Assembly (NCBI GenBank): GCA_964513645.1
Contig: CAZENF010000001.1
Span: 135,303 to 199,302 of the forward strand
Direction of reading: 5' to 3'
Origin: an uncultured Candidatus Saccharibacteria bacterium
Lineage (GTDB): Bacteria; Patescibacteriota; Minisyncoccia; 2-02-FULL-40-12; GWA2-44-9
DNA length: 64,000 nucleotides
In this document: positions 8,855-24,089 of the stretch, piece after piece
Layout of the letters: each line of letters opens with the position of its first letter
Numbering within the stretch: the first letter of the stretch is position 1
Notes under the pieces: generated by a model
Told to the model about the DNA's origin: nothing
The model's database searches: none
The model's input: only the letters and a program-made list of their open reading frames with translations
Position numbers and translations under genes: made by a program

Positions 8855-9838
8855 CTAAGCCAATGAACTGGAGATTATAATATCCAACAATTGTGGGAAG
8901 GTCAAACCGGCAGTTAATGCCGCTTTGGGCAGAAGTGAGTTAGTGGTCAGGCCGGGCAGAGTGTTAGTTTCGAGAACATAAATATGCTGACCTTTGGCTC
9001 CTTTTTTAATTATCATATCCGTTCTCGAATAGGTTCGACAGCCAAGTATTCTGTGGGCTTTTAATGCCGCATCCTGAACGTTTTTTGTTGTCTCTTCGTC
9101 GAGACGGGCAGGAGTTATTTCATCCGAGTGCCCAAATTTGTATTTAGCATTGTAGTCGAAGAATTTATGGCCGTGTTTGGGAACTATTTCGCTTACCGGC
9201 AGAGCAGTCTCGGTCTGGCCATTAAAATTTTCAAGCACTCCGCAGGTTACTTCCGTTCCGGCGATGAATTCCTCAACCAGAACCTTCTTGTCAAAACGGA
9301 AAGCTTCTTTGACCGCTTCCTCGAGTTGTTTTTTATTTGCGGCTATTCTGACCCCGACCGAGGAACCGTTGGAACAGGGTTTGACTACAACCGGAAAATT
9401 AACGACTTTATTAACAAAAACATTCAAGGTCGCCTGATAGTTGTCCCCTTTTCTTATCTTGAGGGTTTTGGGGGTCTCGAGGCCGGACAGTTTGAAAAGT
9501 TCCCGGCTTTTAAGTTTATCCATCGCCAGAGCCGAAGCGGCAATGCCTGAACCGGTATATTTGGCGCCATAATACTCGAGAAGGGCTTGGGCCTGGCCGT
9601 CTTCGCCGAACTTGCCGTGGAGAGCATTAAACACAAGATTGCATTCTCTGACCGCCTCGGCCTCGGTTCTTTTCCGGCCGTTTACGAACCATTCGTTCTC
9701 TTTGGATATTCTTATCGCCACCGGCTCGTACTTAATCTTATCCAAATTATCCAGAACATTCTGGCCGGTTGCCATTGAAACCTCGTATTCACTGGACGGA
9801 CCGCCCATTAGAACCCCGATTTTGAGAATTTTATTCAC
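8855..9838 (-). CDS. ddl: D-alanine--D-alanine ligase
   Basis: N-terminus MNKILKIGVLMGGPSSEYEVS, an ATP-grasp fold, and C-terminal LETNTLPGLT. Confidence 0.9.
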   Translation of the reverse strand: MNKILKIGVLMGGPSSEYEVSMATGQNVLDNLDKIKYEPVAIRISKENEWFVNGRKRTEAEAVRECNLVFNALHGKFGEDGQAQALLEYYGAKYTGSGIAASALAMDKLKSRELFKLSGLETPKTLKIRKGDNYQATLNVFVNKVVNFPVVVKPCSNGSSVGVRIAANKKQLEEAVKEAFRFDKKVLVEEFIAGTEVTCGVLENFNGQTETALPVSEIVPKHGHKFFDYNAKYKFGHSDEITPARLDEETTKNVQDAALKAHRILGCRTYSRTDMIIKKGAKGQHIYVLETNTLPGLTTNSLLPKAALTAGLTFPQLLDIIISSSLA

Positions 9839-10578: not shown

Positions 10579-10635
10579 AGATAATGGTTAGTATATTAAA
10601 GATACCGGATAGGTCAATCGGTCTGTTTTGAAATT

Positions 10636-10658
10636 AAAAAAACTGCCTTTCGGCAGTT
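10636..10658 (-). terminator. Rho-independent terminator for the 99-aa gene
   Basis: ACTGCC-tttc-GGCAGT preceded on the plus strand by A7, which is a U-tract on the minus strand. Confidence 0.6.
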
Positions 10659-10663
10659 CATTG

Positions 10664-10963
10664 TCAGTTAAGGCGCCTATTTTTGAAATTCCGGTGAGCA
10701 ATTACCATTTGCTGATGGACCTCCCGATAAGACAATTTGCAGAGGGGAATTTCTGTGAAAAAAGGTGAGCCATCAAGCCAAGTATTGATCTGGTTAATCC
10801 ACCAGCTTGTCCATTTATTCGTTATCTTACGGGGAGAATCGACTGAACGGATATCAATAAGATGCGTCGGCTTGTTGCCGTTAAAAATTATCCCCCGGCC
10901 CAAAGCCGGCGAATAGTGTATTACCTCTTCCACTGGCACCTCCCTTAAGAAATGGGTCTGCAT
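10664..10963 (-). CDS. Hypothetical protein
   Basis: 99-aa ORF followed by a terminator. Confidence 0.35.
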   Translation of the reverse strand: MQTHFLREVPVEEVIHYSPALGRGIIFNGNKPTHLIDIRSVDSPRKITNKWTSWWINQINTWLDGSPFFTEIPLCKLSYREVHQQMVIAHRNFKNRRLN

Positions 10964-11005
10964 AAAATAGCATTTAAATCTAATTTTGTCAAATAAAGGC
11001 CGGCG

Positions 11006-11296
11006 TTAGCCGGCTTTGGATTTTTTTAATCTCTTTCGAACCATATAATCTGTCAGCACCTCTTCAAATTGAAGTCTTTCCCAAAGCATTAATTTTATCT
11101 CCCGGCTCTGCTCTAAAAACGGCCAATGAGCGAGCAGATGATCTAATGTCTCTACCGCTCTCTCCATCAAACAAACCTCGCTGTCAGTGTAGTCAATCTC
11201 ATCCAGCGGAATGGCTTTGATCAGTTCTATATCCTCAAAATTATACTTACTAAGCTTAGGGTATGGCAATGTCCGGATAGCAAGGGTCATTAGCAT
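11006..11296 (-). CDS. Hypothetical protein
   Basis: 96-aa ORF, acidic and helical. Confidence 0.35.
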   Translation of the reverse strand: MLMTLAIRTLPYPKLSKYNFEDIELIKAIPLDEIDYTDSEVCLMERAVETLDHLLAHWPFLEQSREIKLMLWERLQFEEVLTDYMVRKRLKKSKAG

Positions 11297-11461
11297 ATGC
11301 CCGACTCCGGTCGGAAAGTTGCACGCCTCAAACTTAGCAGATTATAAAATTAATTGTATGTTTAGTCAAGAAGAAAGGAAATGACATCTAACACGTATAT
11401 ACTGAGAAAATTGTAAAATTCTCTTTTTTATGTTATTATTTGTTGGTTATAATTGTATTAT

Positions 11462-11559
11462 ATCCGCCCATAGTCCGCCCGAATGAACATCCGTTCGGAC
11501 AGGCTCAGTTGGTACCCGCCCGAACGTACCGTTCGGTACGGGCGGGGAGCAGCTCCCTT
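11462..11559 (+). other. Degenerate duplicate of the tRNA-Lys 5' half, interrupted by two related hairpin insertions
   Basis: atccgcccatag / gctcagttggta / ggagcagctccctt match positions 1-31 of the downstream tRNA-Lys. Two related inserts (TCCGCCCGAATGAACATCCGTTCGGACAG and CCCGCCCGAACGTACCGTTCGGTACGGGCGG) form hairpins. The segment lies between a -10 box (TATAAT 11446-11451) and the GIY-YIG ATG. Confidence 0.6.
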
Positions 11560-11565
11560 AACGCT

Positions 11566-11799
11566 ATGTACACTGTTTATATATTAAAAGACGGCTTTGG
11601 TAAGCTATATAAAGGAATGACAAACAATTTGAGCCGGCGATTAAGTGAACACCAGTCAGGGCATACAATTACCACTTCAAAAATGATAAATTTTAGAGTT
11701 GTATATAAAGAAGAGTATGCAAATTTTGAAGAAGCAAGAAAGCGAGAATTATATTTTAAAACAGCCGCAGGACGAAGATTCTTAAAAAAGGTCATATAA
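11566..11799 (+). CDS. GIY-YIG nuclease superfamily protein (small, YhbQ/UPF0213-like)
   Basis: MYTVYILKDGFGKLYKGMTNNLSRRLSEHQ matches the GIY-YIG N-terminal motif. Start moved to the internal Met. Confidence 0.8.
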   Translation: MYTVYILKDGFGKLYKGMTNNLSRRLSEHQSGHTITTSKMINFRVVYKEEYANFEEARKRELYFKTAAGRRFLKKVI

Positions 11800-11814
11800 A
11801 TTGAATAATTATAT

Positions 11815-11887
11815 CCGCCCATAGCTCAGTTGGTAGAGCAGCTCCCTTTTAAGGAGATGGTCGTAGGTTCGACTCCTACTGGGCGGA
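11815..11887 (+). tRNA. tRNA-Lys (anticodon UUU), no encoded CCA
   Basis: 73-nt cloverleaf: acceptor CCGCCCA/TGGGCGG, D-arm GCTC-AGTTGGTA-GAGC, anticodon loop CTTTTAA, T-arm GTAGG-TTCGACT-CCTAC. Confidence 0.9.
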
Positions 11888-13342
11888 CAAGATTGAAAAG
11901 TCAGCATTTTTAGGAGTGTTGGCTATTCTAAAAAATGGTTTTTTATATTGTATTTCCTGAATTTCTTTATTTTCGAACTGGATGTTCCAAAGTACGGAAT
12001 TTAGTATTTGATACCTTTCTGAATCTTCTCCAAATAAAAAGTCATTTTTAGCATTTTTGGCTTGTAAAAATACTTCTTTTGTTTGTTCCAAAGTAGTTAG
12101 GGCAGAATTAATATTACCCTTCTTGATATGGCCTAGTTGGGCTTCTAATTCAACTCTTTGATTATTTAGTTCGAGCATTTTCTCATCATAGAGGTCTTTT
12201 CTAATTGTTCCGGAAGCAAAACCATCAGTCAGTCGTGATTCTTTCTCCTTGATCGAATTTAGCTCATTCTGAACGTTTTTAGATAGTACCTCGACTCGGT
12301 TATTACTCAAACCAATCTTCTGTTTAGCGGCCTCATACATAATTTCGATTGCCTCATCATCAAAAGCCAAATCACCAAGCTTGTCAGCAATCAATCTGGC
12401 TATATATTCTTCTCGCATATATGATTTTCCCTGTTCGCAATTGCCTTTGCCATTAGTACAGTAATAATATCTGTGTCCTCGTTTTAGGGAAGCTGTAAGC
12501 ATACAACCACACTCTTTACATCTCATCGAACCTCTCAACGGAAAGAACAATGTTTTTTGTTTTGGCCTGGAAGCCTGATTAATAACCTCTTGGCACCGAT
12601 CGAATAATTCTTTTGAAACAATAGGTTCAAATTTACCTAAATATTCCTCTCCATTCTTGGCCATAATTCCATAATAAATTTTATTATTTATATGCCGATG
12701 AATACTTCCTAAGAACATCTTGCCTCCAGATTTAGTTCTTAAACCTTCCTCGTAGAGCATATCTGAAATATCCTCAAAACTTTTAGTTCCAGAGGCATAT
12801 AACTCAAATATTCTTTTCACCCAATGGGATTTATCATTCGGGAATAATTGTTTAGTAGACGAATCACGAGAATATCCAAAAGGAACTTGAAACGGCCACC
12901 TGCCCTGTCGCAAACTTTCACGATTACCCCTTTTTACATTTTCAGCCAAATCACGGCTATACTGATTAGCCATACCGAAATGAACTAAAATCATTAACAC
13001 GTTGTCTTTTGGAAGATGAATTCCCTGATAGGTTCTAATTTCTTTAATAATATTTTTCTGAAGAAGATCTATTATTTGGCCGCCGTCAATTAAGTTTCTT
13101 GCCAACCTGTCCTCTTTCCAGCAAAGAATAGCATCTGCTTTTCCGCTAGTAATCATTTTTATCATTTGGGCAAATATTGGCCGCCCGAGAGATTTAGCTG
13201 ACTGGCTTTCTTCAAATATTTTAATAACTTTTAAATTATCCCTTATTGCGATTTCAAGAAGCTCTGTTTTTTGAGCATCCAAAGACATGACTTGTCTGTC
13301 TTCCGATTCAGTAGATTTTCGGCAATAAATTATATATCTCAT
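11876..13342 (-). CDS. Large serine recombinase (integrase)
   Basis: N-terminal resolvase catalytic domain (YCRKSTESEDRQVMSLDAQ), recombinase domain, a zinc ribbon (CKECGC…YYYCTNGKGNC) and a coiled coil. The 3' end overlaps the tRNA-Lys 3' end. Confidence 0.9.
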   Translation of the reverse strand: MRYIIYCRKSTESEDRQVMSLDAQKTELLEIAIRDNLKVIKIFEESQSAKSLGRPIFAQMIKMITSGKADAILCWKEDRLARNLIDGGQIIDLLQKNIIKEIRTYQGIHLPKDNVLMILVHFGMANQYSRDLAENVKRGNRESLRQGRWPFQVPFGYSRDSSTKQLFPNDKSHWVKRIFELYASGTKSFEDISDMLYEEGLRTKSGGKMFLGSIHRHINNKIYYGIMAKNGEEYLGKFEPIVSKELFDRCQEVINQASRPKQKTLFFPLRGSMRCKECGCMLTASLKRGHRYYYCTNGKGNCEQGKSYMREEYIARLIADKLGDLAFDDEAIEIMYEAAKQKIGLSNNRVEVLSKNVQNELNSIKEKESRLTDGFASGTIRKDLYDEKMLELNNQRVELEAQLGHIKKGNINSALTTLEQTKEVFLQAKNAKNDFLFGEDSERYQILNSVLWNIQFENKEIQEIQYKKPFFRIANTPKNADFSILSAQ

Positions 13343-15349: not shown

Positions 15350-16156
15350 ATGAAACCATACTATGATAAAAATAATTTCAAACTATATCAGGCAAACTGC
15401 CTAGATCTACTATCCGAGCTCCCAGAAAATTCCGTTGATATGATCTTTGCCGATCCACCCTACAATCTCTCTAATGGCGGTTTTTCCGTTCATGCCGGCC
15501 GAATGGTCAGTGTTAACAAGGGCGATTGGGATAAAAGCAAAGGATTTAAAGATGATTATAATTTTCACTATAGCTGGATGGAGGCTTGTAGAAGGGTTTT
15601 AAAGCCACATGGTACACTCTGGGTTAGCGGAACATATCATTCAATATATCAGTGTGGACATGCTCTCCAAGCCCTTAATTATCACATCCTAAACGATATT
15701 GCCTGGTTTAAGCCAAACGCTTCACCCAATTTAAGCTGCCGATTCTTTACCGCAAGCCACGAAACATTAATCTGGGCTAGAAAAGAAAAGAAGGCAAAGC
15801 ATATCTTTAATTATGATTTAATGAAAAACGGCGAATGGCCGGAAGATAAATTAAAAAAGCCAGGCCTACAAATGAGATCTGTATGGTCAATGGGAACTCC
15901 AAAACCGATTGAAAAAAGATTCGGAAAACACCCTACACAAAAACCGGAAGATCTGTTAAAAAGAATAGTATTAGCCAGTACAAAGAGGGGGGATCTTGTA
16001 GTTGATCCTTTCACTGGAAGCTCAACAACGGGGCTTGCATCATATCTACTCGGCAGGAAATTTATAGGCGTTGATACCGAAAAAAAATATCTGGACTTGT
16101 CTATAAAAAGATTCGAAGAGTTAGATAAAAATTTAAAAAATAAGTCTAACAAATAA
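15350..16156 (+). CDS. DNA methyltransferase (N6-adenine/N4-cytosine, beta-class)
   Basis: Motif IV IFADPPYNL precedes motif I VDPFTGSSTTG, which is the beta-class order. Confidence 0.85.
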   Translation: MKPYYDKNNFKLYQANCLDLLSELPENSVDMIFADPPYNLSNGGFSVHAGRMVSVNKGDWDKSKGFKDDYNFHYSWMEACRRVLKPHGTLWVSGTYHSIYQCGHALQALNYHILNDIAWFKPNASPNLSCRFFTASHETLIWARKEKKAKHIFNYDLMKNGEWPEDKLKKPGLQMRSVWSMGTPKPIEKRFGKHPTQKPEDLLKRIVLASTKRGDLVVDPFTGSSTTGLASYLLGRKFIGVDTEKKYLDLSIKRFEELDKNLKNKSNK

Positions 16157-22823: not shown

Positions 22824-23240
22824 TCAAAGTGAGTTAGAAATGAGATTGTAGATGGAGGTTGCCTTCTTGAATACGATCTCTCGATCGCCGATTATACAAA
22901 CCCGGACCGCCATATAGTCGTTCATTTCGTAGCGGAGAGCGTCAAAGTATTCTTTCTGGGTATCTTTGAGGGAAAGTATCTTGCCGTTGTCGTGATAAAG
23001 TATATCTTCGGGTACAAAGCGCCAGGGTGTAAGAGTCGGAACAATGACAACCTGGTGGGCGGGAATTTTTAAAAGCGCGGCAACTTTTGATTCGAGTGCT
23101 TCAAGATCGTGGGGCGAAGCATGCTTCATGAATTTCTGGAAAAACTCCTGGTCCTCGCCGATGACTTTAATATCTTTGCCGATAATCATAGCCTTGAGTT
23201 GCGTGTTTTTTGACCGTTTGGTGAGGCCCGTTCGTGGCAA
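22824..23240 (-). CDS. Hypothetical protein
   Basis: 138-aa ORF with no recognisable motif. Confidence 0.4.
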   Translation of the reverse strand: MPRTGLTKRSKNTQLKAMIIGKDIKVIGEDQEFFQKFMKHASPHDLEALESKVAALLKIPAHQVVIVPTLTPWRFVPEDILYHDNGKILSLKDTQKEYFDALRYEMNDYMAVRVCIIGDREIVFKKATSIYNLISNSL

Positions 23241-23354
23241 TTCACGTATATACTAGGCTTTGTATTGGAACTGGATGTCTCTGTTTTTATGCTTTTAGAT
23301 CCTGGCCATCAGTTATTTGTCATGCTTCCGCAACAGCTTTTTGGGTGCTACCGT

Positions 23355-24089
23355 TTAAAGGTGGATAAGACGAGCGGCCATTTTCTGGAGAAATCTCTGG
23401 CTGATAAGAGCAGATTTATGAAGGTAAACCTCCTTATACATATAGATATAAAGGCGCTGCATCTGCTTAGCGGCTTCGAGAGATTTTTTATCGATGACGA
23501 GTTTGCTTTCGAGATAGACCAAATAATTGAACAAACTCTCGATGTCCGGCCGCTGGCCGAAACCGGTATGATAAGTATCGCGTTCGAGATAATCGAGTTT
23601 ATCCATCCCGACGTTCTTATCCATTACGATGCGGTAAAGCGGAACCTTGTGCGAAGCGATCTTTTTTATGAATTCGTAATCACCGCCGGCTTTTTTGACG
23701 CTGTCTTTCATCAGTTCCAAAACCACCAGACCGTTCTCGTCCTCATCACCGCTTAACGGGGTAAGTTCCTCGATAACATGAGAAAACGGGCCATGGCCGA
23801 TATCATGGAGCAAGCCGAACAAAGAAATATTCTTGGCTTCGTCCGCAGTCAAAAAACCATCCTCTACCATTCTCTTGGTAAATCTTTTGGTCTTGGCATA
23901 AACTCCAAGAGCATGTTCGAAGCGGTTGTGATTCGCGCCAGGAAAAACGTTTATCGTCGTGCCAAGCTGAGAAATATAAAGCAGGCGGTGGAAAAGAGGA
24001 TGCTGGATTATCGGCATAATATCCCGGATGTCTATGGATTCGTTGGGAGGTATACGGATATATTTTCTGTAAAATTTTGAGGGCGGCAT
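23355..24089 (-). CDS. HD-domain phosphohydrolase (dNTP triphosphohydrolase-like, short)
   Basis: NRFEHALGV … LLHDIGHGPFSH metal-binding motifs. Confidence 0.8.
   Translation of the reverse strand: MPPSKFYRKYIRIPPNESIDIRDIMPIIQHPLFHRLLYISQLGTTINVFPGANHNRFEHALGVYAKTKRFTKRMVEDGFLTADEAKNISLFGLLHDIGHGPFSHVIEELTPLSGDEDENGLVVLELMKDSVKKAGGDYEFIKKIASHKVPLYRIVMDKNVGMDKLDYLERDTYHTGFGQRPDIESLFNYLVYLESKLVIDKKSLEAAKQMQRLYIYMYKEVYLHKSALISQRFLQKMAARLIHL

Follow-up and report, generated by a model that had tools for sequence, protein, structure and literature searches.

A candidate selfish GIY-YIG cassette at tRNA genes of Patescibacteria, with a duplicated tRNA segment and palindromic insertions

By comparing a 64-kb stretch of DNA from an uncultured Candidatus Saccharibacteria bacterium (GCA_964513645.1, contig CAZENF010000001.1, positions 135,303 to 199,302; hereafter the window) with related loci, we found that a tRNA-Lys gene at 11445-11888 of the window is probably occupied by a selfish, free-standing, homing-endonuclease-like GIY-YIG cassette that carries a replacement tRNA segment. 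This reading, which we hold with some reservation, is supported by a layout that recurs across a family of loci, by empty sites in relatives, by a mirror class of loci with two unlike tRNA copies, by multiple and pseudogenized copies, by a partial clustering of the proteins by tRNA type and by the conservation of the catalytic residues.

A single tRNA was placed in the window, a tRNA-Lys(UUU) (ARAGORN; Rfam tRNA, 70.5 bits). Its positions 1-34 and its leader are repeated at 11445-11559 as three exact collinear blocks, split by two GC-rich palindromes, ins1 and ins2 (Table 1). In a gap-tolerant alignment this collinear repeat scored 52.8, against a maximum of 25.8 (mean 14.7, sd 2.3) in 1260 further windows of 200 nt across the 64 kb, which bears out the duplication of the tRNA-Lys 5' half that an original prediction had read from the letters. 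The duplicate had been put at 31 nt, a length that did not hold, since it comprises 34 tRNA nucleotides plus 7 identical leader bases (ATTATAT) within a looser similarity of ~22 nt (GGTTATAATTGTATTATAT vs GGTCATATAAATTGAATAATTATAT). The tRNA part is identical at 34/34 positions, and the copies differ in the leader alone, by indels. Chance similarity or an assembly artefact, an a priori possibility in a metagenome-assembled genome and nothing more, has a negligible probability in view of this score and of the same architecture in independent assemblies from many studies.

The locus thus reads, in order, native promoter, displaced leader and tRNA 1-34 with two palindromes, open reading frame (ORF), second leader and complete tRNA-Lys. 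As predicted, the two inserts are related hairpins that both fold stably, and the duplicate ends 6 nt ahead of the GIY-YIG ATG. The last ORF residues and the stop (KVI and TAA) are encoded by the duplicated leader, and the ORF core (ATG…RRFLKK) is bracketed by two copies of the interval from leader -22 to tRNA +34. The -10 box that had been proposed just ahead of the duplicate does exist as a TATAAT, but a better promoter match, conserved in relatives, lies further upstream and presumably drives fragment, ORF and tRNA together. With this native tRNA promoter ahead of the fragment, the co-transcript of leader, ORF and tRNA that had been envisaged is likely.

Table 1. Features of the tRNA-Lys locus (positions in the window; hairpins were judged by folding energy and by z-score against shuffles)
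Feature	Position	Strand	Remarks
Native tRNA-Lys promoter	11411-11439	+	TTGTAA-17-TATTAT, TG ahead of -10; top promoter-scan match of the region
Left tRNA leader copy (GGTTATAATTGTATTATAT)	11445-11463	+	Contains TATAAT 11448-11453; resembles 11790-11814 and the L203 leader GGTTATT..TAATC
Displaced fragment, block A (CCGCCCATA)	11464-11472	+	tRNA positions 1-9; exact match 11815-11823
Palindrome ins1 (GTCCGCCCGAATGAACATCCGTTCGGACAG), 30 nt	11473-11502	+	At tRNA 9|10; hairpin -9.8 kcal/mol, z = -2.8
Displaced fragment, block B (GCTCAGTTGGTA)	11503-11514	+	tRNA positions 10-21; exact match 11824-11835
Palindrome ins2 (CCCGCCCGAACGTACCGTTCGGTACGGGCGGG), 32 nt	11515-11546	+	At tRNA 21|22; hairpin -20.3 kcal/mol, z = -3.1
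Displaced fragment, block C (GAGCAGCTCCCTT)	11547-11559	+	tRNA positions 22-34; ends in the anticodon loop; exact match 11836-11848
6-nt junction AACGCT, fragment to ATG	11560-11565	+	Gap of 0-30 nt in relatives, not conserved
77-aa stand-alone GIY-YIG ORF	11566-11799	+	PF01541, E = 5.5e-11; no promoter of its own
Right tRNA leader copy (GGTCATATAAATTGAATAATTATAT)	11790-11814	+	Overlaps the final ORF codons and stop
Intact tRNA-Lys(UUU), functional copy linked to the ORF	11815-11888	+	ARAGORN, Rfam; orthologous to the tRNA-Lys of L201 and L203

To see the locus in its family, we used 80 of 191 genomic loci with homologs of the GIY-YIG ORF (L001-L080; all comparison loci carry L numbers), which were fetched solely for that ORF. 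In 74 of the 80 a same-strand tRNA starts within 45 nt of ORF codon 74, the commonest distance being 8 nt. These linked tRNAs have ten identities (Ala, Thr, Asp, Phe, Ile, Val, His, Lys, Met and Arg) and 16 anticodons. Just upstream of the ATG, 56 of the 80 loci carry a 5' fragment of their own tRNA (positions 1 to 15-44), perfect in 33 cases and with a pooled identity of 1697/1735 (97.8%). The acceptor 7-mer of the fragment is that of the locus's own tRNA in 49 of 52 loci, compared with 1.7% of random pairings. Comparison with relatives, the check that had been proposed, therefore assigns the upstream segment to the tRNA. At least 50 of the 80 ORFs have no stop of their own and terminate inside the tRNA, usually at U8-A9-G10, read as TAG; elsewhere the in-tRNA stop is a TAG in the D loop, with the junction near locus position 1731-1746. 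RNase P processing would strip such a stop codon from the mRNA, possibly a built-in limit on nuclease expression.

Several genomes hold more than one copy, at different tRNAs (L012/L066, L015/L023 and L027/L076), and three copies have premature stops (L049, L060 and L066). A neighbor-joining tree of the 75-aa protein, poorly resolved and used qualitatively, clusters by tRNA type in part only, and the context tRNA-Met, tRNA-Met, cassette, tRNA-Asp recurs at seven loci. The recurrence of one layout at many tRNA genes of the ultrasmall Patescibacteria suggests that it represents a family of selfish DNA. A remnant of the ORF 3' end upstream of the fragment is clear in ~6 of 55 loci, in addition to the window and L028, and was dropped as a defining feature because it is clear in too few loci.

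Two further loci, L201 and L203, share with the window the gene order GT4, S11 peptidase, class II aminoacyl-tRNA synthetase, ddl, a 217/224-aa gene and tRNA-Lys. Their Ddl proteins are 71-72% identical to that of the window (8858-9838, minus strand), and L203 has a homolog of the window's 224-aa protein. Both hold, at the corresponding position and in the same orientation, an uninterrupted tRNA-Lys(UUU) with no GIY-YIG ORF and no palindrome. Judged by sequence and synteny, they are empty sites: the intact target is present in ORF-less relatives, distant ones at ~72% Ddl identity. Ahead of the left fragment, the window sequence (…AAATTGTAAAATTCTCTTTTTTATGTTATTAT…) can be aligned with the tRNA promoter region of L201 and L203, including a shared TTGTAA…TGnTAnnnT, so the displaced fragment marks the ancestral position of the tRNA.

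The original prediction had considered a scar left at the tRNA by an earlier integration or duplication. This was right in spirit, the agent being by our reading the GIY-YIG gene itself and no integrase-type event. An integrase attachment (att) scar could have been left by a neighboring serine-recombinase island or by an older, lost one. tRNA genes are classic integration sites, and the recombinase gene overlaps the 3' end of the tRNA by 13 nt and heads a ~10.9-kb insertion absent from L201. However, it is the 5' half that is duplicated, on the side opposite the recombinase, the repeats bracket the 234-nt ORF alone with no integrase gene between them, and no second copy of the tRNA 3' end was found in the window. 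Moreover, fragment, ORF and tRNA recur together in dozens of loci (which were not surveyed for integrase genes), pointing to the ORF as the common factor. We regard an att scar as highly improbable and in effect refuted.

In a mirror class of loci (L009, L023, L028, L030, L053, L059 and L074) the ORF is followed by an intact tRNA and then by a palindrome-bearing second copy, which is full length or lacks its first 7-10 nt. This second copy is 76-89% identical to the intact one, some of the differences being compensatory stem changes. Because the copies are so unlike, the ORF-linked tRNA and the disrupted resident one are distinct alleles, which indicates that the ORF would have arrived with a foreign tRNA, i.e. 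that the tRNA was replaced. A foreign origin of the inserted segment fits these mirror loci, whereas the two tRNA segments of the window are identical. In L008 the intact copy stands upstream and the disrupted copy downstream. Every case retains one and only one intact tRNA, the redundant copy being truncated and palindrome-bearing. Three compound loci (L023:1740-2100, L028:1440-1960 and L011:1440-1940) contain several palindrome-bearing tRNA pieces and suggest repeated rounds of insertion at one tRNA; L023 holds a T-arm fragment with nested palindromes, and L028 has ~20-nt ORF 3'-end remnants ahead of its disrupted copies.

The interruption in nearly every fragment begins CCCGCCCG and finishes CGGGCGGG. 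Its excision restores the exact tRNA sequence, with no target duplication. The main insertion sites are A9|G10, C13|A14 and A21|G22, which are D-stem boundaries, and occasionally the anticodon loop. Forward and reverse palindromes number 30:12 at site 21, 10:5 at site 9 and 0:4 at site 13, the reverse copies being the exact reverse complement of the same element in other loci, and some palindromes sit within a loop or bulge of another palindrome. In 70 of the 80 loci, searched with flanks of ±1.5 kb, strict-core palindromes lie close to the ORF, no more than 130 nt ahead of it or 300 nt beyond it, and none lie elsewhere. ins2 is the commonest 32-mer, with 8-bp inverted ends and an asymmetric bulge of 4-5 nt, and is found unchanged in L003, L012, L017, L022, L031, L049 and L061; ins1 belongs to a second subfamily, whose members in L019, L024, L040, L045, L046 and L065 occupy the same site or one close to it. 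The suggestion that the inserts form a small repeat family in this genome was not borne out in the 64-kb window, where neither has a copy beyond the leader. Conservation of the leader was first hinted at by some database gene calls, whose N-terminal extension ('PAR…VRAGSS') is a translation of the 32-nt insert. A role of the hairpin as supplier of a Shine-Dalgarno sequence was considered and dropped, the spacing being too variable.

It had also been proposed that the tRNA half and its hairpins are a structured leader, an idea made plausible by the native promoter now placed ahead of the fragment. In its fullest form, this would be a domesticated function at the RNA level, in which a structured 5' untranslated region (UTR) couples a host-beneficial nuclease to tRNA transcription and serves as processing signal, stabilizer or translational control. 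The layout is deeply conserved and the ORF under evident constraint, the hairpins are stable (z < -2 vs shuffles in 54 of 61 unique inserts, median minimum free energy -21.3 kcal/mol) and variants in their stems maintain pairing, and a stop inside the tRNA would tie translation to RNase P processing. But the palindrome is also present in exact reverse-complement form, takes up at least three different positions and sometimes follows the ORF, the leader has no Rfam family match, and the arrangement is dispensable, as the empty sites in syntenic relatives attest; several copies per genome, some of them pseudogenized, stand at different tRNAs. The hairpins behave like insertions at the DNA level: they occur in either orientation, their positions vary, some sit inside others, and unrelated genomes carry them alone. 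We therefore consider an RNA-level function improbable.

If the cassette is a homing-type element, as we favor, a model for its spread can be proposed. The ORF, with no promoter of its own, would depend on the tRNA promoter and share a transcript with the tRNA, and its product would break cassette-free cognate tRNA genes within the conserved D arm or close to it. A cassette-bearing allele would then serve to repair the break, homology being supplied on one side by the upstream fragment and on the other by the full tRNA downstream; with these as arms, the flanking genes would be irrelevant and the tRNA sequence alone would be needed. What lies between the arms (palindrome, ORF and replacement 5' tRNA segment) would be copied in, which would recreate the duplicated layout and always leave one intact tRNA fused to the ORF. 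Copying of this kind would account for unrelated contexts that have only tRNA sequence in common, for the regeneration of the same structure and for the one intact tRNA. The palindromes would be small insertion elements that break the displaced copy into blocks of 9-21 nt, and we speculate that they may stabilize the cassette, because direct repeats that recombine downstream of a palindrome would yield a dead tRNA. What the loci themselves display is an insertion/duplication polymorphism at tRNA genes, a conserved layout, foreign tRNA alleles in a part of the loci and, by position, a dependence on the tRNA promoter.

The product of the ORF is a predicted nuclease, a UPF0213/Slx1-like stand-alone GIY-YIG protein by profile and modelled fold. 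The GIY-YIG match spans residues 1-68 of the 77, with no further domain, and relatives have 77-88 aa. Across 26 sequences, residues Y5, Y15, K16, G17, R24, R25, H29 and E61 are invariant, and the catalytic Tyr, Arg, His and Glu are kept. The AlphaFold model is a confident alpha/beta fold (pLDDT 92); profile matches include EF2693 (3.1e-08) and BH0048 (5.1e-06), both UPF0213, and the nearest solved structures in Foldseek are BH0048, EF2693, the Slx1 nuclease domain (TM 0.67, rmsd 2.3 Å) and UvrC-N. Sequence and predicted fold thus agree on a single domain of UPF0213/Slx1 type; a separate DNA-binding domain, as expected of a Seg-like homing enzyme, was not found, the 77 aa being the catalytic domain alone. 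A word-indexed search returned 397 homologs, the best 120 of which are 60-79% identical and, where the source is named, come from Paceibacterota, Parcubacteria or Patescibacteria. An exhaustive profile search gave 1,291 clusters (50% identity) at E <= 1e-10. The NCBIfam, PHROG and PADLOC models had no match to the 77-aa protein, no relatives were found in the viral contigs searched, and an exact-protein look-up found neither the window ORF nor the window Ddl on record.

The palindrome also has a life outside the cassette. Among the matches listed, the exact 32-mer of ins2 occurs in at least 120 metagenome contigs, with 108 distinct flank contexts, as would a dispersed element resembling miniature inverted-repeat transposable elements (MITEs) or repetitive extragenic palindromes (REPs), although it is not multi-copy in the window. 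About 100 of the contigs carry a solo palindrome in unrelated intergenic contexts, often in short tandem repeats or 5' UTRs, with no GIY-YIG and no tRNA; a GIY-YIG homolog, in some cases only 36-47% identical to the window protein, adjoins the palindrome in ~17-19; and ~10 are ORF-less loci of fragment, palindrome and tRNA. The flank preference is symmetric, T-N|N-A (66/108 and 64/108 contexts), and there is no sign of a target-site duplication, 68 of the 108 contexts having no repeat and the remainder being at chance level. Among the same matches, GIY-YIG is the sole protein family that recurs beside the palindrome across independent contigs. One solo-palindrome locus, L121 (part of a 1.59-Mb contig, with copies at 284-315 and 1932-1963), is from a Flavobacteriaceae chromosome, its Der GTPase being 87% identical to those of Pukyongia and Aureitalea; L110, with 5 copies, looks like Bacteroidota from its gene content, and L157 and L167 have 3 copies each. 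The intergenic regions around the Flavobacteriaceae copies were too diverged to align for an empty-site comparison. An identical 32-nt palindrome across two phyla is a puzzle, and may point to a new insertion mechanism.

In the ORF-less layouts (L087:3005, L103:1968, L111:11497, L129:483, L130:14072 and L142:542), a tRNA 5' fragment with a palindrome at 21|22 is followed 45-100 nt on by the intact tRNA. These loci may be deletion derivatives of the cassette, or duplications with no need for the ORF. Rfam searches of 20 solo-palindrome loci returned nothing that accounts for the palindrome. Group II intron domains were seen on Bacteroidota-like contigs with several palindromes (L157:2399-2517 and 689-766; L110:11805-11954), one palindrome of L157 lying ~140 nt from the intron 5' domains; their proximity is probably coincidental.

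These distributions raise a rather unlikely alternative, in which the palindrome is itself the transposon: the GIY-YIG protein would mobilize palindromes of 28-48 nt, ORF and palindrome together being the autonomous form and solo copies the non-autonomous one, with tRNA association and duplications as incidental results of insertion and repair at a site that is tolerated and strongly transcribed. The close company of palindrome and ORF in the 80 loci, the recurrence of GIY-YIG alone beside the metagenome palindromes, the precise insertions in both orientations with T-N|N-A flanks and no target duplication, and the nesting at loop/bulge junctions all speak for it, as does the fact that the nearest structural relative of known activity is Slx1, a structure-specific nuclease. 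On the other hand, it leaves unexplained why the ORF of 74 among 80 loci is fused to the 5' end of a tRNA and why the fragment always matches the local tRNA. In addition, ~100 of the 120 palindrome contigs among the matches listed have no GIY-YIG on the contig, and the window has no solo palindromes. We know of no GIY-YIG transposase. The identical 32-nt element in two phyla nonetheless leads us to entertain, tentatively, a wider possibility, namely that the ~80-aa GIY-YIG protein and the bulged palindromes of 28-48 nt form a new mobile system that would cut the stem-loop junctions of extruded hairpin or cloverleaf DNA (D arm, anticodon loop and palindrome loops). Such a system would drive its gene into tRNAs, replacing part or all of them so that the host cannot lose it, and would paste palindromes precisely, in either orientation and with no target duplication, which might have spread the 32-mer from Patescibacteria to Flavobacteriaceae.

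Several points weigh against the homing-type cassette that we favor. Both the nuclease activity and the mechanism of transfer are inferred, and the nearest empty sites are in relatives only ~72% identical in Ddl. A catalytic domain without a DNA-binding module leaves site specificity unexplained, and simple homing does not explain the switching between tRNA species. The intact ORF-linked tRNA retains the presumed target, with no visible immunity. Long tree branches and recurrent contexts suggest long vertical persistence over frequent homing, and no relatives that would point to a vector between cells were found in viral contigs. Finally, ~80% of the exact 32-mer copies in metagenomes, among the matches listed, have no GIY-YIG nearby, which makes the role of the palindrome in the cassette uncertain.

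The closest parallels to the cassette are phage T4 SegB and the mobile ORFs of mitochondria. SegB is a GIY-YIG homing enzyme whose site contains a conserved tRNA motif and which drives the preferential inheritance of itself and of flanking tRNA genes (PMC2330249). Here too a GIY-YIG gene lies among or next to tRNA genes and is present or absent at its target locus. However, the SegB motif is the TψC arm and the hot spots of the cassette are in the D arm. SegB-type systems have no target-fragment duplication, ORF-tRNA overlap or palindromes, all three of which the cassette has, and the cassette resides on bacterial chromosomes, not in phage. SegB is reportedly larger, with a DNA-binding region, whereas the cassette protein is restricted to its catalytic domain. 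In mitochondrial mobile ORFs (Allomyces atp6; Glomus atp6, atp9, cox2 and nad3), a LAGLIDADG or GIY-YIG ORF is inserted together with a replacement gene end, while a duplicate of the native end stays behind as a remnant; such ORFs are often in phase and without their own stop, and the inserted segment can be foreign (PMC3630166). A predicted endonuclease ORF between displaced fragment and replacement segment is likewise what the window contains, as do 56 of the 80 loci, and the intact tRNA of the mirror class is unlike the disrupted one. The cassette differs in that its host gene is a tRNA, the duplicated end is usually the 5' one, the setting is bacterial and the enzyme is of minimal UPF0213 type. 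In fungal mitochondria, mobile ORFs of this type also come with small GC-rich or double-hairpin elements.

Other known systems resemble parts of the cassette. UPF0213/YhbQ proteins and the Slx1 domain share its single domain of ~80-100 aa by sequence profile and fold; to our knowledge, no tRNA linkage or mobility has been described for UPF0213 proteins, and Slx1 needs a partner, Slx4. Integrase att elements also insert at tRNAs, repeat part of the tRNA directly and preserve its function, but the cassette has no integrase, and its repeat, the 5' part plus leader, brackets ~240 nt and is interrupted by palindromes. MITEs, REPs with their transposases (REP/RAYT), IS200/IS605-type elements and the GC clusters of yeast mitochondria are similarly short, GC-rich imperfect palindromes with inverted ends, and the inserts share with them a multi-copy presence in metagenomes, both orientations and a tie to one enzyme family. 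Unlike them, the inserts are 28-48 nt long, leave no target duplication, go with a GIY-YIG protein and not an HUH or DDE transposase, and include a 32-mer that spans two phyla. Group I introns in bacterial tRNA genes are selfish insertions that leave tRNA function intact (PMC3984707); the cassette has no ribozyme, and function is kept by duplication, not splicing. In the full-text literature, with most subscription journals outside reach, we found no description of a tRNA-fused GIY-YIG gene with partial tRNA duplication, nor of the palindrome. By our reading, the cassette is probably a free-standing homing-type endonuclease gene with a target-segment duplication.

If our reading is correct, the cassette would be the counterpart on bacterial chromosomes of phage and mitochondrial homing ORFs, with a tRNA gene as both landing pad and promoter, and an essential gene would be preserved through duplication or replacement instead of splicing. 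With ~1,300 clusters, the family could be a major shaper of tRNA loci in the otherwise streamlined genomes of Patescibacteria, and it offers a route for the horizontal exchange of tRNA alleles. A predicted nuclease of 77 aa with apparent locus specificity would also be an unusually small test case for specificity. There are consequences for annotation, as gene callers extend ORFs through the leader and the output of tRNA finders contains odd duplicate or 'stop' tRNAs. ARAGORN made two 'tRNA-Stop (tta)' calls (L201:2273-2346 and L057:1728-1801). The L201 call is a one-base register error and no suppressor, because the anticodon loop is CTTTTAA and the rest is close to the window tRNA-Lys(UUU); this was checked on the L201 sequence alone.

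Some candidates were rejected at the tRNA-Lys locus itself. Rfam at E <= 1 returned nothing but the tRNA and an antisense artefact, with no intron and no leader family; the artefact, a minus-strand 'Plastid-ycf2 5'UTR' match at 11815-11888 (32 bits vs a gathering score of 65.7), is the tRNA antisense and not real. A group I intron in the tRNA was discarded, there being no ribozyme core in that search and the tRNA being contiguous, as was a split or permuted tRNA or an archaeal-type intron, since an intact contiguous tRNA is always present.

The surroundings of the cassette hold other material. Between the 224-aa membrane-protein gene and the cassette lie ~880 nt (10579-11456) where L203 has an interval of 120 nt, and this stretch may be further inserted or decayed material; it includes a 96-aa ORF (11006-11296, minus strand) with no Pfam match and no counterpart in L203. 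On the other side, compared with L201, an insertion of ~10.9 kb (11876-~22800) adjoins the 3' end of tRNA-Lys, which means that the tRNA-Lys locus has been struck from both sides by different mobile elements. The insertion begins with the large serine recombinase (11876-13342, minus strand; Resolvase, Recombinase and Zn_ribbon_recom), whose stop lies in the overlap with the tRNA, and its cargo comprises a rolling-circle-type Rep (PF23343, 13339-14070), an N6/N4 DNA methylase (15350-16156), a trypsin-like peptidase and a Laminin_G_3 protein. Synteny resumes past the island with a gene for an HD-domain protein (22827-24080) that is 72% identical to that of L201.

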